Assembly (NCBI GenBank): GCA_963839535.1
Contig: CAWIVF010000006.1
Span: 38,256 to 102,255, forward strand
Origin: an uncultured Solirubrobacterales bacterium
GTDB taxonomy: Bacteria > Actinomycetota > Thermoleophilia > Solirubrobacterales > 70-9
Length of the DNA stretch: 64,000 nucleotides
Direction of reading: 5' to 3'
Position numbers and translations under genes: made by a program
In this document: positions 1,083-49,833 of the stretch, one piece after another
Numbering within the stretch: the first letter of the stretch is position 1
How the letters are laid out: every line of letters starts with the position of its first letter
Notes under the pieces: generated by a model
What the model was told of the DNA's origin: nothing
Database searches by the model: none
What the model saw: only the letters and a program-made list of their open reading frames with translations

Positions 1083-1352
1083 ATGGCCAAGGCCGACATC
1101 GCACAGACCGGGCTGGCCCAGGCGGCGGCGCGATTTCCGGCGGCGGCCGCGAGGCTTCGCCGGCTCGCGCTCGCCGACCCGGGATTCCGCGAGCTCTGCG
1201 AGGAGTACGGGTTGGCGCGGCAGAGCCTCGCCCGCTTCGAGGCGCTGCCGGACGCCGCCGAGCGGCCGGAGGTCACGGACTACCGGTCCGTCATCGCCGA
1301 GCTCGAGGGCGAGATCGACCGGTTTCTGAGGGAGGCAAGACCGGGAGGCTGA
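1083..1352 (+). CDS. Small hypothetical protein (89 aa)
   Basis: ORF with GGTGAGG upstream of the ATG and coding-like codon bias. No recognisable family. Confidence 0.4.
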   Translation: MAKADIAQTGLAQAAARFPAAAARLRRLALADPGFRELCEEYGLARQSLARFEALPDAAERPEVTDYRSVIAELEGEIDRFLREARPGG

Positions 1353-1452
1353 CGGAACCCTCCAAGGAAGCTCACCGGAAATTCGGGCACGGCCCGGCTA
1401 GCCTCGGGAGGGGCGCCGGGGAGGCCGTGCCTCGCGGACATCAGGGCAGACC

Positions 1453-2922
1453 ATGAAGAAGTTCCCGACCGCCTTCACCATCCTCTTCGTGCTGATCGTC
1501 GTCGTGGCGGCGCTGACCTGGATCATTCCGGCCGGCCAGTACGAGCGCGCGATGAACGAGACGCTGGGGCGCGAGGCGCCGGTGCCTGGCACCTACGCCC
1601 TGGTCGAGCCGAACCCGCAGGGGCTGGTCGCAGTGCTGATGGCGCCGATCGCCGGGCTCTACGACCCGGCGACGGGCATGGCGAACGCCGTCGACGTCGC
1701 GGTCTTCGTGCTGATCATCGGCGGCTTCCTCGCGGTGGTGACCAAGACCGGGGCGATCGACGCCGGCATCGGCTGGCTGCTGACGGCGCTGAAGGGGCGG
1801 GAGATCTGGATGATCCCGATCCTGATGGCGGCCTTCGCCGCGGGCGGGACGAGCTACGGGATGGCGGAGGAGAGCCTCGCCTTCTACGCGATCGTGCTGC
1901 CGGTGTTCATCCGGGCGGGCTACGACGCGCTGACCGGGGTCGCGGTGATCATGCTCGGCTGCGGCATCGGCACGCTCGGCTCGACCTTCAACGCCTTCGC
2001 GACGGTGATCGCCTCGAACGCGGCGGGGGTGCCGTTCACCGACGGGCTGCTGCTGCGGGTGTTCATCCTCTTCGCCTGCCTCGCCGCCGGCATCCTCTTC
2101 GTGATGCGCTACGCGCAGCGGGTGAAGGCGGAGCCGGCGCGCTCGGTGGTGGCGGCGCAGCGCGAGGACAACATCGCGCACTTCCTCAAGGGCTCGGAGC
2201 TCGGCGCGCCGCTGCCGGAGTTCAACCGGGTGCGCGAGATCATCCTGGCGCTGTTCGGGCTCACCTTCGTGATGATGCTCTACGGGGTGATCGCGCGCGG
2301 CTGGTGGATGGGCCAGATGTCGGCGCTGTTCCTCGGCATGGCGATCGTCACCTTCTTCGTCGCGAAGTTCGACGCCTCGACGAAGATGGACGAGCACACC
2401 TTCGTCGACACCTTCGTCAACGGCGCGCGCGACCTGCTCGGGGTGGCGCTGATCATCGGCGTCGCCCGCGGCATCGTCGTGATCATGGACGCGGGCAAGA
2501 TCACCGACACCATCCTGAACGCGCTCGCCGGCACCCTCGCCGGGTTCGGCAACGTCCTCTTCATCAACGTCATGCTGGCGTTCCAGACGATCCTGTCGTT
2601 CCTGGTGCCGTCGTCGTCGGGGCTCGCGGTGCTGACGATGCCGATCCTGGCGCCGCTGTCGGACTTCGCCGGGGTGCAGCGCGACCTGACGGTCACCGCC
2701 TACCAGTCGGCGAACGGCTGGGTGAACCTGTTCAACCCGACCTTCGCGGTGGTGATGGGCGGGCTGGCGATCGGGCGGGTGGCCTACGACCGCTGGCTGC
2801 GGTTCGTCTGGCCGCTGCTGGTGATCCTCGCGGTGATCATCTCGGCGGCGCTCAGCCTCACGGCGATGATGACGGACGTGCCCGCCGCGGCCCCGGCGCC
2901 CGCAGCGGCGCCGGCGAACTGA
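1453..2922 (+). CDS. YfcC/DcuC-type multi-pass membrane carrier; by position a candidate arginine/ornithine exchanger of the ADI cluster
   Basis: 489 aa, hydrophobic throughout. N-terminus [32 protein letters not shown] is typical of the YfcC family. Sits directly upstream of arcA. Confidence 0.8.
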
Positions 2923-3051
2923 GGCGATGGCGAGCCGAGGCGAGCGTGGCGGCCGAAGGCTTCGGATCGTTGCGCACTTCCTCGCCGGCATCCCCATCCA
3001 CGTCGCGATCAAATGGCGCACCCGCGCCCAAGAACGGGAGGAGACCTGACC

Positions 3052-4278
3052 ATGCAACTCGGCGTCCACTCGGAGATCGGCAAGCTCCGCAAGGTGATGG
3101 TGTCGCGCCCGTCGCTCGCCCACGAGCGGCTGACGCCCGGCAACTGCCACGACCTGCTGTTCGACGACGTGATCTGGGTGCAGAAGGCGCGCTCCGACCA
3201 CGCCGACTTCGTGCTGAAGATGAAGGACCGCGGCATCGAGGTCTACGACATCCAGGACCTGCTGACCGACGTCTTCCGCGACAGCCCCGAGGCGCGCGCC
3301 TTCGTGCTCGACCGGCGGATCACCCCGAACCAGGTGGGGCCGGCGCTCGCGCGCATCCTGCGGCCGTGGCTCGACGAGCTCGACCCGCACCTGCTGGCGC
3401 GGCACCTGCTCGGCGGCGTCGTGCGCGACGACCTGCCCGCGGACATGGTGACGCCGGTGATGCGCGAGGCGCTGTCGGCGACCGAGTTCATCGTGAAGCC
3501 GGTGCCGAACGCGCTCTTCCAGCGCGACCCGTCCTGCTGGATCTACGGCGGGGTCACCTGCAACCCGATGTTCTGGCCGGCGCGCAAGCCCGAGGCGCTG
3601 TTCCAGCGCGCGGTCTACAAGTTCCACCCGGCCTTCACCAAGAACGAGTTCGAGATCTGGTGGGGCGACAGCGACGAGGACTGGGGCAACACCTCGATGG
3701 AAGGCGGCGACGTCATGCCGATCGGCAAGGGCGTCGTGCTGATCGGCATGGGCGAGCGCACCACCCGGCAGGCGGTGAACCAGGTCGCCGACCGGCTGTT
3801 CGAGAAGGGCGCCGCCGAGCGGGTCATCGCCTGCGCCATGCCGAAGTCGCGCGCGGCCATGCACCTCGACACGGTCTTCACCTGCCTCGACCACGACAAG
3901 GTGACGGCCTTCCGCGAGGTGGTGGACGAGATCACCTGCTTCTCGCTGCGGCCCGACGGCAACGGCGACGTCGAGATCACCAAGGAGGAGGGCCACCTCT
4001 TCGACGTCTACAAGGCGGCGCTGGGCCTCAACGACCTGCTGGTCGTCGGCACCGGCGGCAACGCCTTCGACGCCGAGCGCGAGCAGTGGGACGACGGCAA
4101 CAACGTCGTCGCGCTCGAGCCGGGGGTGATCGTCGGCTACGACCGCAACACCCACACCAACACGCTGCTGCGCAAGGCCGGCGTCGAGGTCATCACCATC
4201 GGCAGCCAGGAGCTCGGGCGCGGGCGCGGCGGCGGGCACTGCATGACCTGCCCGATCCTGCGCGACCCGGCCTACTGA
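3052..4278 (+). CDS. arcA: Arginine deiminase
   Basis: [20 protein letters not shown]... and the C-terminal [12 protein letters not shown] catalytic-Cys motif. GGGAGGAG Shine-Dalgarno ahead of the ATG at 3052; the ORF-track start at 3013 is probably too early. Confidence 0.93.
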
Positions 4279-15549: not shown

Positions 15550-16245
15550 ATGGCCGCAAAGATACTGGTCGTGGAGGACGAGGAGCCGATCAGCCAGCTC
15601 CTCGCCTACAACCTGCAGAAGGAGGGATTCGGCGTCGTCACCGCGGTGGACGGCGACGAGGCGCTGGTCTCGATCGCCGAAGGCAAGCCGGACCTCGTGA
15701 TCCTCGACTGGATGCTGCCCAACGTCTCCGGCATCGAGCTCTGCCGGCAGTTTCGCGCCCGCGCCGACACCCGCGACATTCCGGTCATCATGCTGACCGC
15801 CCGCAGCGAGGAGGAGGACCGGGTCCGCGGCCTCGACGTCGGCGCCGACGACTACGTCACCAAGCCGTTCTCGATGTCCGAGCTCGTGGCCCGGATGCGC
15901 GCGGTGCTGCGCCGTACCGCGCCGGCGGTGGCCGGCGACGTGGCGAGCTTCGCCGACCTCGTGCTCGACCGCGAGCTCTGCCGGGTGCGGCGGGGGAAGC
16001 GCGACGTCCACCTCGGGCCGACCGAGTTCCGGCTGCTCGACGCGCTGATGCAGCGCCCGGGGCGGGTGTTCTCGCGCGAGCAGCTGCTCGACCGGGTCTG
16101 GGGGCAGGACGTCTACGTCGAGATCCGCACGGTCGACGTGCATATCGGGCGGCTGCGCAAGGCGCTCAACCGGCGCGGCGACCGCGATCCGATCCGCACG
16201 GTCCGCTCGAGCGGCTACGCGCTCGACGAGACCTACGCGGGCTGA
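15550..16245 (+). CDS. phoB: Phosphate regulon response regulator (OmpR/PhoB family)
   Basis: MAAKILVVEDEEPI...DLVILDWMLP receiver domain plus a winged-helix end (VDVHIGRLRKAL...IRTVRSSGYAL). Confidence 0.92.
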   Translation: MAAKILVVEDEEPISQLLAYNLQKEGFGVVTAVDGDEALVSIAEGKPDLVILDWMLPNVSGIELCRQFRARADTRDIPVIMLTARSEEEDRVRGLDVGADDYVTKPFSMSELVARMRAVLRRTAPAVAGDVASFADLVLDRELCRVRRGKRDVHLGPTEFRLLDALMQRPGRVFSREQLLDRVWGQDVYVEIRTVDVHIGRLRKALNRRGDRDPIRTVRSSGYALDETYAG

Positions 16246-16501
16246 CCGGGCGGAGCGCAGGCGCCCCGACCTCCTGGGGTGTCCACGCGTGATATTGTCG
16301 CAACTCGCTGAAATCGCTCGATTGCGAGCTCCGGAATTAACCTCCTGTCAGGCCTCCTCCCGCCTCGACGCGGACCCGGAGGGAGCCGCGCCGCGCGCCC
16401 CGAAGGCGGCACGGCGCGGTCGCGTCTCGTACGAAATCCGATTGAGCGACTTAGACCCGCATCCGCGAAGCCCGCTGCCGCAAGGCTCTGGAATTGCCGC
16501 A

Positions 16502-16589
16502 TTAACCGGCGGCAGTCGCTGTAGGTTTCCCGTAGTTTTTCCGTAGTTTTCCTGTAGCTACAAAACCGTCGGCGGAGGGGAAGGTTAAC
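16502..16589. repeat. Copy A of a ~87-bp intergenic element: TTAACC, then three 11-bp iterons, an inverted half-site, then GGTTAA
   Basis: Iterons are gtttcccgtag (16525-16535), tttttccgtag (16536-16546) and ttttcctgtag (16547-16557), followed by ctacaaaacc. The GTAGCTAC palindrome spans the junction. TTAACC lies at 16502 and GGTTAA at 16583. A second copy lies at 34418-34504. Confidence 0.75.
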
Positions 16590-16636: not shown

Positions 16637-18823
16637 TCACATCGCTTCGAGCGGACCGAGGGCCAGGAAGTGGGTTTCGCCCGAGCTGTCGTCGGTGCCG
16701 TCGTTGTCGGTGACGACGAAGGCGGTGCCGGCGGTATCGATGGCGAAGCCCTCGACCTTGTCGGCGACGTAGCCGCGCGGGACGGCGAGATCGGGCAACA
16801 GGTCGCGCACGGTCTCCTTGGTGACGAGCGGCAGCTCGCCGTCGAGCGGGGCCGGGGCGAGGCCGGCGAGAGACACGCGGGTGATGCGCTTGATGCTCGC
16901 GCTCTCGCCGATCCGGTTGTCGCGCTCGATCAGGTAGAGGTGGTCGCCGTGGGCGGTGATCTCCGAGAGGCCGACCCAGCCGCCTTCGGGGGCGGCGTCG
17001 AGCGGGTAGCGGACGGCGCCCCACTCCTCGGTCTCGGGGTCCCAGGCGAGAAGCTTCACCTGGCCCTTCGGGTCGTCGCCCCATTCGCGCTGGATGGCGA
17101 TCCAGACCTTGCCGTCGGCGACGGTGACGCCCTCGGCGCCGGAACGGGTCTGCTGGCCGAGGAGCGCGGGCGGGTAGCCGATCTCCTCGACGATCTCGCC
17201 GCTCGCGTCGACGCGGATCAGGGCGTGCGGGACGACGGCGCCGGGATCGCCCTCACTCGCCAGCCAGAAGCCGCCCTCGCCGTCGGGAGCGATGCCCTCG
17301 AGGTCGAGCTTCTGCGCCGGGCGGCCGGCGCGGGTCACGTCGATGGCGCGCACGATCCGGGCCGGGGCGGCGGTCGCGTCGATCTCGAAGATGCGCGGCT
17401 GCATGGCGTAGACGCTGTCGCTGACGGCGAAGAGGCGGCCGGGCGTGGCGGGATCGGCGGCGAGGCCGGAGAGGGCGCCCCAGCCGAGCGGCGTGTCCGG
17501 GCCGTCGGCGACGATCGACGGATAGGCCGGGGCCTCGCGCTCCGCGAGCGCGTAGATCATGACGTGGGCGCGGGCGAGGCCGTCCTCGACGAGGTCGACC
17601 TCGTTGGCGGTGGCGAGCAGGCCGCGCGACGGGATCGCCGTCACCCCCTCGGGCGAGACGCCGGAGGGCAGGAGCTGGTGCAGCACCGGGGTGCCGTCCT
17701 CGATCCGGTGGACGCCGACGACCGAGCCGCGCTCGGAGAGCACGAAGAGATAGTCGGTGTCGCCGAAGCGCGCCGCCTCCATGCCCTCGGGCTCGACGCC
17801 CTTGGCGTCGGAGCGGCCCTCGGGATAGTGGCCGATGGCGGCGACGGCGTGCTCGAAGGCCGGGCCGCTCTCGAAGGCGACGCTGCCGTCGCGGCCGAAG
17901 ATTGTGAAGCTGCGGCTGCCGCCCTGCCAGTCGCCCTCGTTGGCGGTGGCGAGCCGGTCGGTGCCGAGCCACTGCACCGCGTCGGGCTCGCGCGGGACGC
18001 CGGTGGTGCTCCCGGTGAAGTCGAGCGCGCCGTCGTCGGTCAGGTCGACGCCCTCGAGGTCGACGGCGCCGGCGGAGAAGTGCGCGAGCACGCTGCCGTC
18101 GCGGCCGACGATGACGACGTGGTTGTTCTCCTGAAGGGTCACGGCGATCTCGCCGTCGGCGTTCACGTCGACGAACTCGGGCTCGGGATCGTCCGGCGCG
18201 ACCTCGGCGAGGCCGGTCAGGTCGGCGCGGACGATGGCGTCGCACCGCATGGCGCCGTCGGCGAGCGGGACGATCGCCAGCCAGCCGGCGGGGAGCTGCG
18301 GGAGGGCGCCGTCGTTCACCTCCTCGTCGCGCTCGTTCTCGATCGCCACCGCGACGAAGCTGCCGTCGGGGGCGAGCGCGGTCGAGTTGGGCTGGCCGCC
18401 GAGGTCGCAGGAGCCGGTCTCGGCGCGGGTCGCGAGGTCGACGGCGGCGAGGCGGCCGGAGGGTTCGGTGAAGCTCGCGCGGGTGTTGACGGCGACGAAG
18501 GCGGTGTCGTTAAGGATCGACACGGCGGTCGGCTCGCCGTCGAAGGCGAGGCTGCCAAGCGCGGCCGGGGCGGCGGGGTCGGCGATGTCGATGAAGCCGA
18601 CCGCCTGGTTCGGGCTGTCGGTATAGACGAGCGTCATGCCGTCGCCGCTCGCCGCGACGATCTCGGCCGAGGTCGGCGTCGCCGGGTCGCTGCCCGCGGG
18701 CAGGTTGCGCGCGACCGGGAAGGAGGCGAGGCGGTCGAAGAAGGGCGCGGCCGCCGCCGGCATCGCGGCGGCGAGCGCGGCGGTCGAGGCGAGCAGGGCG
18801 GCTGGGAATCGCAGTTGCGGCAT
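16637..18823 (-). CDS. Secreted phytase-like esterase / putative alkaline phosphatase (beta-propeller type)
   Basis: 728 aa from MPQLRFPAALLASTAALAAAMPAAAAP (signal peptide). The repetitive propeller-like sequence and the C-terminal ...KVEGFAIDTAGTAFVVTDNDG are typical of proteins annotated 'esterase-like activity of phytase'. A Pho box lies upstream. Confidence 0.7.
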   Translation of the reverse strand: MPQLRFPAALLASTAALAAAMPAAAAPFFDRLASFPVARNLPAGSDPATPTSAEIVAASGDGMTLVYTDSPNQAVGFIDIADPAAPAALGSLAFDGEPTAVSILNDTAFVAVNTRASFTEPSGRLAAVDLATRAETGSCDLGGQPNSTALAPDGSFVAVAIENERDEEVNDGALPQLPAGWLAIVPLADGAMRCDAIVRADLTGLAEVAPDDPEPEFVDVNADGEIAVTLQENNHVVIVGRDGSVLAHFSAGAVDLEGVDLTDDGALDFTGSTTGVPREPDAVQWLGTDRLATANEGDWQGGSRSFTIFGRDGSVAFESGPAFEHAVAAIGHYPEGRSDAKGVEPEGMEAARFGDTDYLFVLSERGSVVGVHRIEDGTPVLHQLLPSGVSPEGVTAIPSRGLLATANEVDLVEDGLARAHVMIYALAEREAPAYPSIVADGPDTPLGWGALSGLAADPATPGRLFAVSDSVYAMQPRIFEIDATAAPARIVRAIDVTRAGRPAQKLDLEGIAPDGEGGFWLASEGDPGAVVPHALIRVDASGEIVEEIGYPPALLGQQTRSGAEGVTVADGKVWIAIQREWGDDPKGQVKLLAWDPETEEWGAVRYPLDAAPEGGWVGLSEITAHGDHLYLIERDNRIGESASIKRITRVSLAGLAPAPLDGELPLVTKETVRDLLPDLAVPRGYVADKVEGFAIDTAGTAFVVTDNDGTDDSSGETHFLALGPLEAM

Positions 18824-34282: not shown

Positions 34283-34417
34283 GCGAGCACCTCGCTGCCA
34301 GAACGTGTGGCTACCGCAGGCGCTGCGTCGCTTGCCCGACCTTCGGCCAGAATGGGCGGAAGTTCAAGGGCGGGGCGCATCAGGGCGGCGGCCGCTCGAA
34401 GGGCCGGCCGGCGGGCG

Positions 34418-34504
34418 TTAACCCGAGGACGTCGGCGTCGGTTTCCCGTCGGTTTCCTGTAGTTTTCCCGTAGCTACAAATCCGCCGCGACGCATTCGGT
34501 TAAG
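34418..34504. repeat. Copy B of the ~87-bp iteron element
   Basis: TTAACC (34418), then gtttcccgtcg (34441-34451), gtttcctgtag (34452-34462), ttttcccgtag (34463-34473), ctacaaatcc, and GGTTAA (34498). Collinear with copy A at 16502-16589. Confidence 0.75.
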
Positions 34505-34573
34505 CCACGCTCCCCGTCCGGGAAGGCGACCCCCGCGGTTACCCCATGCTCAAGGCAAGAGCCGGCACGAGGT

Positions 34574-34619
34574 CTTCGAGCGATCGCCCTGGCGGGGCAG
34601 TCAGGGCGATCGCTCGAAG
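34574..34619. repeat. Perfect 18-bp inverted repeat with a 10-nt loop
   Basis: cttcgagcgatcgccctg / gcggggcagt / cagggcgatcgctcgaag. Confidence 0.85.
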
Positions 34620-34750
34620 CGAACGCGAGGCTTGTGCAGGCCGGCGGGCGGCATGGCTCGTCGCTACGGAGCGGCGCGTCGGCGTCGCGGCGGTGGCGCC
34701 GGCGCGCCCGCGCCGCGCCGCAGCGGCGGCGCGGGTTTCCGCGTCGCAAA

Positions 34751-34768
34751 AGGAAGGAAGGAAGGAAG
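34751..34768. repeat. Short tetranucleotide run (AGGA/GGAA x4)
   Basis: aggaaggaaggaaggaag, followed by a 10-bp hairpin (ctgatgaagc ggct gcttcatcag) at about 34784-34807. Confidence 0.8.
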
Positions 34769-34829
34769 ATCTGCACCGAGGCGCTGATGAAGCGGCTGCT
34801 TCATCAGGCGCCTTCTCCAGCGTGGGTCT

Positions 34830-34903
34830 GCGAGTCGGGCCGGCGTCAAGGCTGAACGGCCTTCGGCCGCGGCTTCGCCGGCCTTGACCCCGGCCCGACT
34901 CGC
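34830..34903. repeat. Long imperfect hairpin just downstream of the AbrB-family gene (possible terminator or REP-like element)
   Basis: gcgagtcgggccgg-cg-tcaaggc ... gccttga-cc-ccggcccgactcgc, with an inner GGCC-GAA-GGCC hairpin. No U-tract follows on the minus strand. Confidence 0.6.
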
Positions 34904-34952
34904 GGCAGGAGGAAGACGGAAGGGCGGCGGCCTTCAGGCGATTGCGCTGGGA

Positions 34953-44194: not shown

Positions 44195-45003
44195 GCCCCG
44201 AGCGCGAGGCCGGTCGCCGCGGCGAAGCCTTCGGCGATGCCCGGCGCCGCCGCGATGACCGGCCCGCCGTCGGCGAGCCCGCCGAGGTCGAGGAACGGTC
44301 CGACCCGACCCCCGGCCTCGGCGACGAGGAGCAGCCCGGCGAGGCAGTCCCAGGCGTTCATGTGCACCTCGGCATAGCCGTCCGAGCGCCCGTCGGCGAC
44401 CCAGGCGAGCGCCAGCGCCCCGGAGGCGCCGCGCCGCACGTTGGCGCCCTCGTCGAGCAGCGCCGCCAGCGCCGCGACGTAGCGCGCGTTCGGCACCCGG
44501 GTCGACCAGCCGAGCTCGACGCAGGCGGAGGCGAAGTCGCGGGTCGGCGCGACCCGGACGGCCGCGCCGTTGCGCGTCGCCCCCGCGCCGCGCCGGGCGA
44601 AATGCAGCTCGCCGAGCGCGGGGTTGCAGATCGCGCCGATCTCGGTGGCGCCGTCGCGGACGAAGGCGATCGAGACGCAGAAGTGCGGCACGCCGCGGGC
44701 GAAGTTGGCGGTGCCGTCGATCGGGTCGACCACCCAGGTGTCGCGGCCGGCGCTGCCGCCGGTCTCCTCGCCGAGGAAGGCGTCGTCCGGGAAGGCCTCG
44801 GCGATGGCGCGCTTCACGTGGCGCTCCACCGCGGCGTCGGTCTCGGTCAGGAAGTCCTGCGGCCCCTTCATGCGGAAGCCGGCGGCCCGGTCGAAGCCGT
44901 CGAGCGCCACCCTGCCGGCCGAGAGGGCCAGCTCGCGGCAGAAGGCGGCGCGGGCGTCGAGGTCGGAGCCGGCCTGGCCCGCGGGACGGATGTCGATGTT
45001 CAT
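44191..45003 (-). CDS. Inositol monophosphatase-family protein (paralogue 1, intact)
   Basis: 270 aa with FLGEETG, WVVDPIDGTANF and AWDCLAGLLLVAEAGG motifs. Confidence 0.88.
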   Translation of the reverse strand: MNIDIRPAGQAGSDLDARAAFCRELALSAGRVALDGFDRAAGFRMKGPQDFLTETDAAVERHVKRAIAEAFPDDAFLGEETGGSAGRDTWVVDPIDGTANFARGVPHFCVSIAFVRDGATEIGAICNPALGELHFARRGAGATRNGAAVRVAPTRDFASACVELGWSTRVPNARYVAALAALLDEGANVRRGASGALALAWVADGRSDGYAEVHMNAWDCLAGLLLVAEAGGRVGPFLDLGGLADGGPVIAAAPGIAEGFAAATGLALGA

Positions 45004-45007
45004 GGGA

Positions 45008-45866
45008 TCACGCCACTGAGGAAACCTTGGCGGCCGCGGCGATGCGGCCCTCGGAGATGCCGTCCGCCACCCGGTCGAGCGTCGGATAGTCCGCGCCCGC
45101 CCCGGTCACCACGTAGCCCGGGCAGAGATGCGCCGGGGCATCGCGCGGCACCTTGCCCTGTGACAGCGGGCGGTAGCGGCCGCCGGCCTGGCGCAGGATC
45201 AGGATCGCCGCCGTCACGTCCCAGGGGTTGACCCCGAAGCCGCAGGCGGCGTCGGCCCAGCCGGCGGCGACCTGGGCGATCGAGAGCGCGGCGCTGCCGG
45301 GGCGGCGCAGGGTCGAGAAGGTCTCGACCAGCTCGCCGAAGCCGGCGAGCGCGCGCTCGCGCCCGTCGAGGCGGAAGTCGCGCGCCACCGGATAGCCGGT
45401 GATCAGCGTCGCCCGGCGCTCGTCCGGCAGCGCCCGCGAGCGGATCGGGGCGCCGTTCAGCCAGACGCCGCCCAGGTCGGCGGTAAAGACGTTGCCGCCG
45501 ACCGGGTCGACGATGGCGCCGGCGACGATCTCGCCGCCGACGACCGCGCCGACCGAGACGCACCAGGAGGCGAGGCCGCGGGCGAAGTTCGCGGTGCCGT
45601 CGATCGGGTCGACGTACCAGGCGACCCGGCCGGTTCCCTGCGGGCCGTCCTCCTCGCCGACGATGGTGGAATCGGGGACGCGGTCGAGGATGAGGCCGCG
45701 GATCGCCGCCTCGGCCTCGCGGTCGTAGCGGGTGACGAGATCGTGCAGGTCGGCCTTGTAGTCGATCGCCATCGCCGAGCGGAACGCCGCGAGCAGCGGC
45801 GCGCGCACCGACAGCGCGGCGTCGGTGGCGACGGCGCGGAGCGCGGCGGAGCTCGGCGCGAGTCAC
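45008..45866 (-). pseudogene. Inositol monophosphatase-family protein (paralogue 2), probable +1 frameshift in the first ~20 codons
   Basis: The core is intact (IVGEEDG, WYVDPIDGTANF, PWDVTAAILILRQAGG). The conserved N-terminal helix (AALRAVATDAALSVRAPLLAAF) continues upstream of the track's GTG (45808) with no in-frame start. A GTG at 45866 overlapping the HAD stop is in the -1 frame. Length is 3n+1. Confidence 0.65.
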
Positions 45867-46672
45867 GCCGCGGCCTCGCGCAGGGCGGCCTCGAGCAGCG
45901 CCAGCAGGCCGTCGCGGGTCGGCGACGATGGCGTCGGGCCGGAGGTCGAGCTCGTAGGGCAGCTCCCAGGTGCCCCTGGCCTCCATCAGGATGTTGCCGC
46001 CGATCCCGGCGCGGCGGCCGCAGAGCACGTCGCGGTCGAAGTTGTCACCGACGTACCAGGCCTCGGCCGGGACGACGCCGAGCGCGCGCGGTGGCGAGGC
46101 GGATCATCTCCGGGTTCGGCTTGCGGACCCGGGCCGTCGTCGCTGTGGATCCTGACGGCGAATCGGTCGGTCATGCCGTGCTCGGCCAGCCAGTCGAGGT
46201 GGACCTGGCCGGAGAGGGCGTTGCTGACGATGCCGACCGGGATGCCGGCGGCGTCGGCGCCGTCGAGCAGACGGTCCATCCCGGCGCGGAGCCGCCGGTC
46301 GCTCCTCAGGTGCCCCATGCGGCGGCAGAGCTCGGCGGCGTCGCCGAGCACCGCCTCGCGGGCGGCGGCGGGCCAGTCGGCGGCGACGAAGTCGCCCCAG
46401 AACTCGGCGTGGGTCAGCTCGCGCGGCGCGAAGGGCCGCGACATCGCGTCCTTCCACCGCGAGTCGGCGCGGGCGCCGAAGCCGATGTCGCGCGCGATCT
46501 GCGCGGGTCCCGGGGCGCCGGCGATCCCGGCCAGCCGCTCGGCGACCTCGGCGGCGAGCGCCGCCTCCCAGCCCGGCACCTTCGTCGTCTCGACGATCAC
46601 CCCGCCGAAGTCGAGGAGCAGCGCCCGCGGCGCGGCGAGCTTGCGGCCGGAGAGGGCGCGGGGATCAGGCAT
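45863..46672 (-). pseudogene. HAD-superfamily hydrolase, three frame shifts (about 46130, 46085 and 45915)
   Basis: MPDPRALSGRKLAAPRALLLDFGGVIV (DxG motif I)...GIVSNA (motif II) in one frame. This is followed by VRKPNPEMIRLATAR, then LGVVPAEAWYVGDNFDRDVLCGRRAGIGG (motifs III/IV), then DGLLALLEAALREAAA*, each in a different frame. Confidence 0.7.
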
Positions 46673-47517
46673 CGGCGGCCTCCGGCTCGGCGCGCACCGG
46701 CAGGCGCGACGACACCTCGCGCGCCACCCGGTCGAGGGTCGGATAGTCGGCGCCCGGCGCCGACGCCGTAGTAGTCGTCGGCCGTCTGCGGCGCCGCCAG
46801 CGTCGCGCCGCGCGACAGCGCGACGAACCGCCCGCCGGCCCGCTCGAGGATCAGCGCGCCGGCGGCGATGTCCCAGGGATGGGTCATGAAGCCGAGGGTG
46901 GCGTCGGCCCAGCCGGCCGCGACCCAAGCGAGCTGCAGCGCCCCGGTGCCGGGATCGCGCAGCGACAGGAAGGCCTCGGCGAGCGCCCGGTGCGGGGCGA
47001 AGGCGGCCTCCCCGAGCGCCGCGTAGTGCCGGGCGACCGGGAAGCTCGTCAGCAGCACCGCCTCCCACTCGCGGGCCCTGGCGCCGGCCGTCAGGGGCGT
47101 GTCGCCGAGCCACGCGCCCGCGAGGTCGGCCCGGAAGGTCTCGCCGGTCACCGGCGCGTGGACGACGCCGGCGACGACCTCGCCGTCGACCTCGGCGGCG
47201 ATCGAGACGCACCAGGTCGGCAGGCCGCGGGCGAAGTTGGTGGTGCCGTCGATCGGGTCGACGTACCAGACGACGCGGCCCTCGCCCTGCCGGCCGCCCT
47301 CCTCGCCGACGACGGCCGAGCCCGGCACCGCGGCGCGGATGTGCCGGACGATCGCCGCCTCCGACGCCCGGTCGTGCGCGGTGACGATGTCGTGGAGGTC
47401 GCGCTTGGTGCTGAACTCCATCGCCGAGCGGAAGGCGGCGCGAAGCGACGGCGCCACCTCGAGCGCCGCCGCCTCGGCGACCCGCATCAGCTCGCTGCTC
47501 TCGGCGTGGGACGTCAT
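46665..47517 (-). pseudogene. Inositol monophosphatase-family protein (paralogue 3), +1 frameshift near 46750-46758
   Basis: MTSHAESSELMRVAEAAALEV...VVGEEGG, WYVDPIDGTTNF and PWDIAAGALILERAGG. The tail ADYPTLDRVAREVSSRLPVRAEPEAADA* is in another frame and parallels paralogue 2 (GAGADYPTLDRVA). Length is 3n+1. Confidence 0.8.
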
Positions 47518-47561
47518 CGCTCCTCGTCTCGGGTCGGGGCGGCAAGGGCGCCGCCCGGGGT

Positions 47562-48686
47562 TCACTTCGCGTAGCTGACGCGCCAGAGGTCCTGCCAGTC
47601 CTGGCGCATGTCCCAGTCGTCGAGCGCGGTCGAGGCGTCGTACTGCTCGAGCCTGTCGAGCACCGCGCCGATCCCCGACGGCTCGTCCGGCGGCAGGCCG
47701 ATGTCGGGATTGGTCGGCAGCTTGCCGTCGATCACCTGCGGCGCGATGCCCTCCTCGGTCAGGATGTAGTGGATGAAGAGCTTCGCCGCGTTCGGGCTGT
47801 CGGTGCCGCTCGCGATCAGCCCGAGCTTCACGTAGGTCCAGCCCGGCCACGGCCCGAGGTCCTTGCAGAGCCCGAGCTTGTAGCCCTTGTCGGCGTTGTC
47901 GCGGAACTTGGCCGAGCTCAGGAGCCCGAAGAACGGCTCGGTCTGCCCGGGCGCCCCGACCGCCTCGGAGATCGCGTCGTCCGAGTCGGTCAGCAGCGGC
48001 CCGTTGGCGGCGAAGGCCTTCACCCAGGCCCGCATCGCGCTCTCCTCGCCGCGGTCGAGCTCGCTGCCGAACTGGGTCTCGTAGGCCGCCGCCATCGCGT
48101 CGTCGTGGTGCATCTCGGTCTGGTTGAACCAGTCGGGGTAGGTCGGCTTCGACAGCGGGTCGTAGAAGGCGACCTTGCCCTTCCACTCCGGCAGCGTCAG
48201 CTCCCAGAGGTTCTTCACCGGGCATTCGTCGTAGACCTCGGTGTTGTAGGCCCAGACGCTGGCGTTGGTGGTGATCGCCAGCGGGTCCTGGAACTGCGCC
48301 GGGATCTTGTCCTTCATGTCCGGCGGCAGCCAGCTCTCGACGAAGCCCTCCGGCAGGAGCTGGGCAAATCCGGCCGGGGCATCGGTGATCAGCACGACGT
48401 CGCCCAGCACGTTACCCGCCTGCGCCTCGCGGATGATCATCTCGAGCTGGCTCGAGGCCGAGACCTTCTCGCCGGTCGCCTGGAGGCCGTACTTCTTCGA
48501 GAAGTTCTCGGCCATCTCCACGATCTTGCCGGTCGAGTCGTAGATGGTGATCGGCGGCTCGGCCTTGGCCGCCGCGGCCAGCGCGTCGAGGTCGAACGCC
48601 TCCTCGGCCGCGGCCGGACCGGCCAGCACCGCGGCGGCGAACAGCGCGGCGATCGAGGCGCCGGCTTTCAGGCACTGCGTCTGCAT
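47562..48686 (-). CDS. Periplasmic binding protein SBP-2 (FbpA/AfuA/PotD superfamily), intact
   Basis: MQTQCLKAGASIAALFAAAVLAGPAAAEEAFDL... GGAGGAG SD 6 nt upstream of the ATG at 48686. Full-length paralogue of SBP-1. Confidence 0.85.
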   Translation of the reverse strand: MQTQCLKAGASIAALFAAAVLAGPAAAEEAFDLDALAAAAKAEPPITIYDSTGKIVEMAENFSKKYGLQATGEKVSASSQLEMIIREAQAGNVLGDVVLITDAPAGFAQLLPEGFVESWLPPDMKDKIPAQFQDPLAITTNASVWAYNTEVYDECPVKNLWELTLPEWKGKVAFYDPLSKPTYPDWFNQTEMHHDDAMAAAYETQFGSELDRGEESAMRAWVKAFAANGPLLTDSDDAISEAVGAPGQTEPFFGLLSSAKFRDNADKGYKLGLCKDLGPWPGWTYVKLGLIASGTDSPNAAKLFIHYILTEEGIAPQVIDGKLPTNPDIGLPPDEPSGIGAVLDRLEQYDASTALDDWDMRQDWQDLWRVSYAK

Positions 48687-48724
48687 CTTCGTCTCCTCCA
48701 TGGCTCGGCCGTTCCGGCTCGCCT

Positions 48725-49833
48725 TCACTTCACGTAGCTGACCCGCCAGAGATCCTGCCAGTCCTGCCGGGCGTCCCAGTCGTCCGCGGCGCTCGCCGGG
48801 TCGTAGGGGAACATCTGCTCGACCACCGCGGCGATGCCCGACGGCTCGTCGGCCGGCAGCTTCGCGTCGGCGTTCGTCGACATCTTGCCGTCCGCGGCCT
48901 GCGGGGCGATGCCCTCCTCGGTCAGCAGGTAGTGGATGAAGAGCTTCGCCGCGTTCGGGCTGTCGGTCCCCGCCGCGATCAGGCCGAGGCTCGGATAGAG
49001 CCAGCCGGCCCAGGGCTGCATGCCCGTCGCAGATGCCGAGCTTCGCCCCGGCCTCGGTGTTGTTGCGGAACTTCGCCGAGCTCATCATCCCGACGAACGG
49101 GGCCGTCTGGTCCGGCGCGCCCACCGCCTGCGCCGCCGCCTCGTCGGCGTCGGTCAGCAGCGGCCCGTTGGCGGCGAGCGCGGCGACCCAGGCCGCCGTC
49201 GCCGTCTCCTCGTCGGTCTCGAGCGGCTTGCCGTAGCGCGCCTCGTAGGCCTCGGCGATCGCCGCGTCGCCGTGCGTCGCCATCTGGTTGAACCAGTCGA
49301 TGTAGGACGCCTTGCCGAGCGGGTCCTGCAGCGCGACCTTGCCCTTCCACTCGGGCTCGGTCAGCTGCCAGACGTTCTCGATCGGGCACTCGTCGTAGGC
49401 CTGGGTGTTGTAGGCCCAGAGGTTCGCCTCGTTGGCGATGACCAGCGGGTCCCGGTAGCGCGGGTCGATCTTGTCGGCGAGGTCGGGCGGCACCCAGCTC
49501 GTCGCGAAGCCCTCGGGCAGGAGCTGCGCCGCGCCGGCGGCGACGTCGCTGATCTGCATCACGTCGCCCTGCACGTTGCCGGCCTGCGCCTCGCGGATCA
49601 CCATCTCGAGCTGCGCCGCGGCGTTCGCCTTGGTGCCGGTCGCCTCGATCCCGTACTTCTTCGAGAAGGCCTCGGCCTGCTCCACGATCTTGCCGGTGTT
49701 CGAATAGACCTGCAGCGGCGGCTCCGCCTCGGCGGCCGCGACCAGCGCCTGCAGGTCGAACTCCTCCGCCGAGGCCACGCCTCGCCAGCGCCGCGAGCAG
49801 CGCCGCCGCCGATACTCCGAGCATCTTCCGCAT
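48725..49833 (-). pseudogene. Periplasmic binding protein SBP-1, two +1 frameshifts (about 49781 and 49024)
   Basis: The signal peptide MRKMLGVSAAALLAALA is in one frame. The mature part (VASAEEFDLQALVAAAEAEPPLQVY...KLGICDG) is in a second, and the tail (MQPWAGWLYPSLGLIAAGTDSPNAAKLFIHY...WRVSYVK*) is in a third (ORF 48725..49021). Length is 3n+2. Confidence 0.8.

Follow-up and report, generated by a model that had tools for sequence, protein, structure and literature searches.

A phased direct-repeat core in a probable non-autonomous intergenic repeat family of Amaricoccus-like Paracoccaceae

The described repeats to which the element reported here is most likely nearest in behaviour are the Correia elements (CREE/NEMIS) of Neisseria, the BIME repeats and the MITEs of bacteria. 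CREE/NEMIS can create promoters at their ends, thereby affecting neighbouring genes (PMC2649163). REPs are palindromes of 20-40 bp whose stable stem of 8-9 bp adjoins a tag, GTAG or CGTC; super-families are distinguished by these tags, and in Alphaproteobacteria the CGTC families are the typical ones (Di Nocera et al., 2013; PMC3733652). In BIME-1 (RIB/RIP), an IHF site lies between the inverted units (PMC2817692, PMC3733652).

We analyzed a stretch of 64,000 nucleotides (hereafter the window; 71% G+C) in which a first-pass annotation had pointed out two copies, A and B, of an intergenic element. With a probability of roughly 0.75, we consider both copies to be lineage-specific, high-copy, non-coding intergenic mosaic repeats of uncultured Amaricoccus-like Paracoccaceae from soil and rhizosphere, which behave as non-autonomous mobile or recombining elements and not as a dedicated operator. 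The family is new; the kind of element is a known one. Correia elements are probably, by analogy, the closest match to how it works. Both are non-coding, intergenic, high-copy repeats in the range of ~100-150 bp, and both combine terminal inverted repeats ending at TA with a central architectural site (IHF in CREE, putative in the present element). Nevertheless, the two share no sequence similarity. The center of the present element is made of phased 11-bp direct repeats, whereas that of CREE is an IHF consensus, and its inverted termini measure 6-7 bp (18 bp in the outer shell of the B-type copies described below) compared with 26 bp in CREE. Moreover, TA duplication and RNase III processing are features of CREE.

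With REP/BIME repeats the element shares its extragenic location, a copy number above 100, the tetranucleotides GTAG/CGTC and an organization as mosaics of conserved units and variable linkers, but its core is not a stable palindrome and its repeats are direct and spaced by 11 bp. Like IS-derived bacterial MITEs, it is shorter than 300 bp (86-88 bp for the module, 211 bp for the larger composite), contains no ORF, occupies many unrelated loci, falls into sub-families and appears as a lineage-restricted burst. It also has terminal inverted repeats, namely the 18-bp repeats of the B-type shell and GTTAACC / GGTTAAC in 13 copies. Unlike for MITEs, the analysis revealed no parent insertion sequence sharing its ends; the IS630 copies encountered were inserted into the element, and their ends are unrelated to its own.

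Layout and setting of the two copies

Direct reading and alignment confirmed that copies A and B are collinear (Table 1). Both follow the order TTAACC, spacer, three 11-mers, GTAGCTAC, spacer and GGTTAA, with an exact 11-bp phasing of the direct repeats. Copy B is one base shorter (86 versus 87 bp), as had been noted, its parts being otherwise alike, and the three quarters of identical positions previously estimated by eye amount to 65 of 88 (74%) in a global alignment. The three tandem 11-mers also stood, but the consensus first written for them, kTTTyCCyGTmG, has 12 letters; the true unit is KTTTYCYGTMG, with 11. When a single mismatch at most is tolerated, this pattern occurs 12 times for 3.2 expected, a count reached in 0 of 100 shuffles. 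When copies A and B were combined into an nhmmer profile, it matched only these two in the 64 kb, with E-values of 6e-27 and 3e-25 that are circular since the profile was made from the copies themselves, and the next-best match had an E-value of 24.

What is common to the whole family is a core of ~45-55 bp composed of GTMG, three 11-mers KTTTYCYGTMG and then CTACAAAA. In most copies, this core lies within an 86-88 bp module bounded by the inverted motifs GTTAACC / GGTTAAC. The T-tracts of the core recur once per helical turn, and the cores of copies A and B are the top two helically phased AA/TT segments of the window, with scores of 7.7 and 6.4 against a background median of 1.0 and a 99.9th percentile of 4.4. 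Since no other segment of the window is as strongly phased, intrinsic bending is expected, and the cores are probably bent DNA. With 83 bp, or ~8 helical turns, between them, the terminal TTAAs share one face of the helix.

Table 1. Positions of the parts of copies A and B, of the larger units around them and of related features (L-numbers denote contigs; the other positions are those of the window)
Feature	Position	Strand	Remark
Copy A, 87-bp module TTAACC to GGTTAA	16502-16588	+	sequence read directly, MAFFT alignment, profile
A-type left arm of copy A	16443-16501	+	~58 bp; repeated elsewhere; not in the orthologous L104 locus
Copy A left end TTAACC	16502-16507		followed by a 17-nt spacer ending in GTAG
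Copy A 11-mers GTTTCCCGTAG, TTTTTCCGTAG, TTTTCCTGTAG	16525-16535, 16536-16546, 16547-16557	+	head-to-tail; high-copy core, phased T-tracts
Copy A palindrome GTAGCTAC	16554-16561	+	followed by AAAACC, to 16567
Copy A CTACAAAACC	16558-16567		followed by 15 nt to GGTTAA
Copy A right end GGTTAA	16583-16588		
Copy B, 86-bp module TTAACC to GGTTAA	34418-34503	+	sequence read directly, MAFFT alignment, profile
B-type composite enclosing copy B	34381-34591	+	211 bp, palindromic; left bound CAGGGCG(G/A)..GCTCGAAG, right bound CTTCGAGCGATCGCCCTG
Copy B left end TTAACC	34418-34423		
Copy B 11-mers GTTTCCCGTCG, GTTTCCTGTAG, TTTTCCCGTAG	34441-34451, 34452-34462, 34463-34473	+	
Copy B palindrome GTAGCTAC	34470-34477	+	feature to 34479, the first two A of the AAATCC tail
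Copy B right end GGTTAA	34498-34503		
Solo third copy of the 18-bp terminal repeat	34602-34619	+	perfect 18-bp hairpin with 34574-34591
IS630 insertions in terminal TTAA	L082:1150-1165; L085:280-290; L095		L095 carries the same IS as L085
Left neighbors of B-type copies (copy B, L083, L084, L087)			p107 (copy B); nusG (L083); LysR-type regulator (L084); glutamine-synthetase-like gene (L087)
Left neighbors of B-type copies (L091/L093, L092, L096)			Gfo/Idh/MocA oxidoreductase (L091/L093); unnamed gene (L092); glycosyltransferase-like gene (L096)

The gene context given by the first-pass annotation was also borne out. Copy A sits between two convergent 3' ends: phoR-phoU-phoB ends at 16245, PhoB having the domains Response_reg and Trans_reg_C, and a phytase-like gene, encoded on the minus strand, runs to 16637. 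Copy B, placed 135-220 nt upstream of a PepSY operon by the annotation, lies 136-222 nt upstream of the start (34282) of the gene for a 107-aa protein (p107) that heads this PepSY_TM operon; it is also downstream of an AbrB-family gene.

Copy number, sub-families and distribution

Further copies came from JGI and Logan metagenomes. Fifteen JGI contigs matched a 34-nt degenerate core pattern, and as the set was picked by this pattern, the conservation of the core within it is partly built in. All-against-all comparison distributes these 15 contigs into ~12 unrelated flanking contexts, the likeness between them being limited to the element. In Logan contigs from four soil or rhizosphere metagenomes, depth over 16537-16563 of copy A is 430-730, compared with 7-36 on its flanks, and over the core of copy B it is 1300-3900 for ~10 on the single-copy flank. 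Altogether, the core reaches 15-260 times the depth of single-copy flanks in soil and rhizosphere metagenomes, a ratio from which the copy number per genome is inferred and which pools related organisms. Each run contains 9-105 Logan contigs that match the core, many of them with differing loose ends (9-54 per run for copy A), and in many of these ends GTTAAC lies ~20 nt from the core with a different intervening sequence. The copies of the core thus number dozens to hundreds, and their flanks are of many unrelated kinds. In metagenome contigs, the last unit most often reads TTTTTCCGTAG.

The copies have sharp boundaries. The span from TTAACC to GGTTAA is 86-88 bp in 13 of 13 full copies (strings of 98-99 nt when 6-nt flanks are included); the terminal motifs thus keep a fixed spacing although the spacers vary. 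All family copies are located outside coding sequences, in convergent, tandem or divergent settings, and across the whole family both orientation and position relative to genes are mixed. For a regulatory site, dozens of copies without positional preference had been named beforehand as the outcome that would speak for a generic repeat, and this is what was found family-wide. The alternative that the annotation had offered, a miniature mobile or REP-like element, is the one favored by copy number, boundaries and hybrids.

Two sub-families are distinguished by their arms. The A-type comprises copy A and the copy of L090, which have GAATTGC..TTAACC in common; in the metagenomes, 16456-16518 is covered 3-5 times as deeply as the right flank of copy A. 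The B-type is defined by ~210 bp common to copy B, L083, L092 and L096 at differing loci, and found in part in L084, L087 and L091. Homology between B-type copies starts at (C)AGGGCGATCGCTCGAAG and stops at CTTCGAGCGATCGCCCTG, the sequences beyond being unrelated, and the shell so delimited ends in an 18-bp terminal inverted repeat (CAGGGCGATCGCTCGAAG / CTTCGAGCGATCGCCCTG), of which the right one is matched exactly at 34574-34591. Some copies consist of the core only; that of L086 begins 5 nt downstream of a stop codon, that of L089 is made of two units, and that of L095 has a different spacing. Spacers and arms are thus common to unrelated loci, which indicates copying and not the convergent evolution of binding sites.

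Further evidence comes from relatives of the window. The nearest homologs of its agmatinase belong to Amaricoccus and Paracoccaceae MAGs (76-88% identity), and window sequence recurs in many soil and rhizosphere metagenome runs, including a matching 152-kb ENA contig (ERZ25039469:contig_19020). The near-identical strains L001, L097 and L098 keep copy B. L099, in which p107 is 73% identical, has no element upstream of the PepSY operon and keeps the gene-proximal sequence, including GGAAGTTCAAG, which on the coding strand reads as a -35-like CTTGAAC; homology to the window breaks off ~10 nt short of the left terminal repeat, and the distal flank is not orthologous. L099 does carry a copy elsewhere, between two other genes (17633-17718). 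At the phoB/phytase-like locus of L104, whose flanks are ~93% identical to those of the window, the site is filled by a hybrid copy: its left spacer is of the B-type and its right spacer of the A-type, the 58-bp left arm is missing, and the right end has a 5-bp indel. This hybrid shows that copies exchange sequence.

No copy was detected in six further related contigs (L101-L103 and L105-L107, of which L105-L107 are not syntenic) or in ~450 kb from 25 Amaricoccus-like GTDB species representatives; the second GTDB scan, which used the agmatinase gene as anchor so as to cover the two loci together, met poor synteny. A scan of GTDB species representatives with GTAGTTTTCCYGTAGCTACAAA returned 0 matches and is weak, the pattern excluding the majority variant TTTTTCCGTAG. 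Likewise, neither PLSDB plasmids (blastn) nor IMG/VR viral contigs (pattern scan) gave a match, and searching the literature for the motif's letters yielded nothing relevant. It follows from this restricted distribution among relatives that the family is a young one, limited to a narrow lineage.

Mode of spread and competing readings

The family would have spread as a non-autonomous element, either through a transposase acting in trans on the inverted termini or through recombination between copies, which would both copy and homogenize them. By analogy with the IHF site of Correia elements and BIME-1, the phased array could form a bent or protein-binding center by which the two ends are drawn together. 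The 64-kb window and the ~20-kb pieces of relatives yielded no cognate transposase. Homologs of p107 and of the phytase-like gene did not provide a clean empty site from which a target-site duplication could be read; they comprise strains with the copy, one hybrid and non-syntenic relatives. Transposition is a candidate next to recombination and ancient vertical copies; TTAA, found at either end of the module, may be a target duplication or belong to the repeat. Individual copies may affect neighboring genes, and the fixed terminal spacing, together with the orientation of the B-type copies, hints at a function beyond selfish spread.

This orientation is the main argument for a portable promoter or architectural cassette, a reading that is compatible with a mobile repeat and according to which at least the B-type copies, through a co-opted function comparable to that of Correia elements, carry an outward promoter or a bound architectural protein at their gene-facing end and so modulate the downstream gene. 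In all seven B-type copies with a determinable left neighbor, this neighbor is a gene whose 5' end lies toward the left end of the element and whose transcription leads away from it (Table 1; binomial p ~0.008), a small sample examined post hoc. On the strand facing the gene, GGGAAAC-N17-GGTTAAC, present in both A and B, resembles a -35/-10 pair of the ECF type, which reads GGAAC-N16-17-CGTT. The left half of the element (TTAACC, left spacer and core) is 10-20 times commoner than the right spacer in metagenomes, and a single metatranscriptome fragment spans a B-type copy. This fragment, however, crosses the predicted start site and is read-through or DNA carry-over. Consensus scans detected no sigma-70 promoter and no intrinsic terminator, the distance from element to gene start varies from ~45 to 310 bp, the PepSY operon has its own conserved promoter-like sequence in the element-less L099, and copy A, like other non-B copies, is located at 3' ends or between convergent genes. 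On balance, we regard the cassette as unlikely; should the orientation lock of the B-type copies hold genome-wide, it would provide a tractable case of a repeat carrying a promoter or an architectural site.

A bolder version, which we hold to be improbable, would make the phased 11-bp array the platform to which a DNA-binding protein peculiar to this lineage attaches at hundreds of sites, be it a nucleoid-associated protein or a transposase turned to host use, and the B-type shell an orientation-locked portable promoter or insulator cassette rewiring downstream genes. If true, it would amount to a new REP-like system based on direct-repeat instead of hairpin recognition.

Rather doubtful, too, is a system of the REP/BIME type in which a domesticated tyrosine transposase (RAYT) would act on the repeats, with the GTAG/CGTC tags as its recognition signal. 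The plus strand has four occurrences of GTAG or GTCG, and the minus strand has another one (the complement of CTAC), and the repeat is a high-copy, extragenic mosaic of modules. Pairing within the core is nevertheless limited to GUAG/CUAC plus U/A with a bulge, i.e., a stem of only 4-6 bp, and the element contains no 20-40 bp palindrome with a stable stem beside the tag.

The reading initially put forward, a tandem array bound by a winged-helix (OmpR/PhoB-type) or iteron-binding regulator of the flanking Pho and PepSY genes, now appears very improbable. The exact 11-bp phasing is a feature of Pho boxes and OmpR-family operators as well, copy A adjoins phoB, copy B is upstream of an operon, and CTGTAGT-TTTC-CTGTAG loosely recalls the Pho box, CTGTCAT-N4-CTGTCAT. 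The half-site here is CTGTAG, however, and neither the copy number, with dozens to hundreds of copies in unrelated contexts, nor the positions, copy A being between convergent 3' ends, nor the lack of orthologous conservation fits an operator: the element is absent from the orthologous promoter of L099 and from the scanned sequences of all sister genomes, and the spacers and arms common to separate loci bespeak copying.

As for a structured small RNA or cis-regulatory RNA, the annotation's other alternative, a long hairpin can be drawn from the nested inverted repeats and the metatranscriptome fragment mentioned above overlies a B-type copy, but the idea is scarcely tenable given no credible Rfam match to the element at gathering or permissive thresholds (even E = 10), insignificant fold z-scores (-0.2 to -1.4; single sequences, both strands), 0 of 19 compensatory pairs and an unfavorable covariation term in RNAalifold with 11 copies, and the much greater rarity of the repeat in RNA than in DNA, one contig in each of two rhizosphere metatranscriptomes touching the family compared with ~50-100 in the DNA runs X1, X2 and X7.

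Known sites and elements were compared with the copies and set aside as identities, in agreement with the earlier view that the element fits neither the Pho box, CtrA, DnaA box nor parS. Replicon iterons were rejected, the copies being dispersed on chromosomal contigs among housekeeping genes with no plasmid match. A Pho box operator was discarded in view of the unit KTTTYCYGTMG, a half-site that is not CTGTCAT-like, the place of copy A between 3' ends and the absence of a sigma-70 -10 downstream; a regulon-type operator was discarded in view of the very high copy number and the lack of conservation at orthologous promoters. By eye, the CACA part of the DnaA box is missing, the unit GTTTCCCGT resembles half of the parS sequence GTTTCACGT but is not palindromic, the TTAA motifs are inverted and 83 bp apart, which is incompatible with a full CtrA site, and the IHF consensus is absent. 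Also by eye, GAAAACT..GTTAAG has a chance resemblance to a Tn3-family inverted repeat, with the wrong spacing, and the ends of IS630 are unrelated to those of the module.

With the dispersed mosaic repeat as the preferred explanation, several practical points follow. In annotation, these sites should be taken neither for operators of the Pho or PepSY genes nor for iterons of an origin, and motif discovery in this lineage should mask the family as repeats. The element adds a well-delimited, modular repeat family from an uncultured soil alphaproteobacterium, the phased direct-repeat center of which is unusual, as is the orientation lock of its B-type copies.

Neighboring features of the window and its relatives

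Some sequences next to the two copies have features of their own. The third 18-bp repeat beyond the B-type composite forms, with the right terminal repeat, a perfect 18-bp inverted repeat at 34574-34619 (CTTCGAGCGATCGCCCTG-N10-CAGGGCGATCGCTCGAAG), and the repeat contains GCGATCGC. Insertion sequences of the IS630 family (HTH + DDE_3 / HTH_Tnp_IS630) were encountered inside three independent copies of the element, each time exactly at the TA of a terminal TTAA, and these termini look like an IS630 insertion hot spot. Next to copy B, L001, which encodes an identical 107-aa protein, lacks ~410 bp (window 34541-34951, junction GATCA), either through a strain-level deletion or through an assembly difference. 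Strains L097 and L098 also show length variation in a (GGAA)n run at ~34742-34765.

Between the stop codon of phoB and copy A, a stretch of 250 bp (feature at 16290-16440, plus strand) is ~93% conserved in L104. It contains AACCUCCU, GGCCUCCUCCCGCC and, in the loop of a predicted hairpin, the anti-Shine-Dalgarno-like motif CCUCCUCCC; downstream of these motifs come a G+C-rich hairpin (16388-16420) and a U-containing tail. The stretch looks like a putative small RNA gene of the CcsR/alpha-r14 ('cuckoo') type; the candidate has no credible Rfam match, and its fold z-score is only -1.0.

Elsewhere in the window, region 44600-49330 contains several direct repeats of 150-300 nt (families D1-D3, D7 and D16) with 71-82% identity, 883-1650 nt apart, which suggests a tandem array of paralogous genes. 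Finally, the gene caller gives a 584-aa 'Arginase' at L001:18436-20190, where the window frame stops after 349 codons and where L097 and L098 have a 350-aa agmatinase and a separate DinB gene; the 584-aa protein of L001 is probably a gene-calling artefact.
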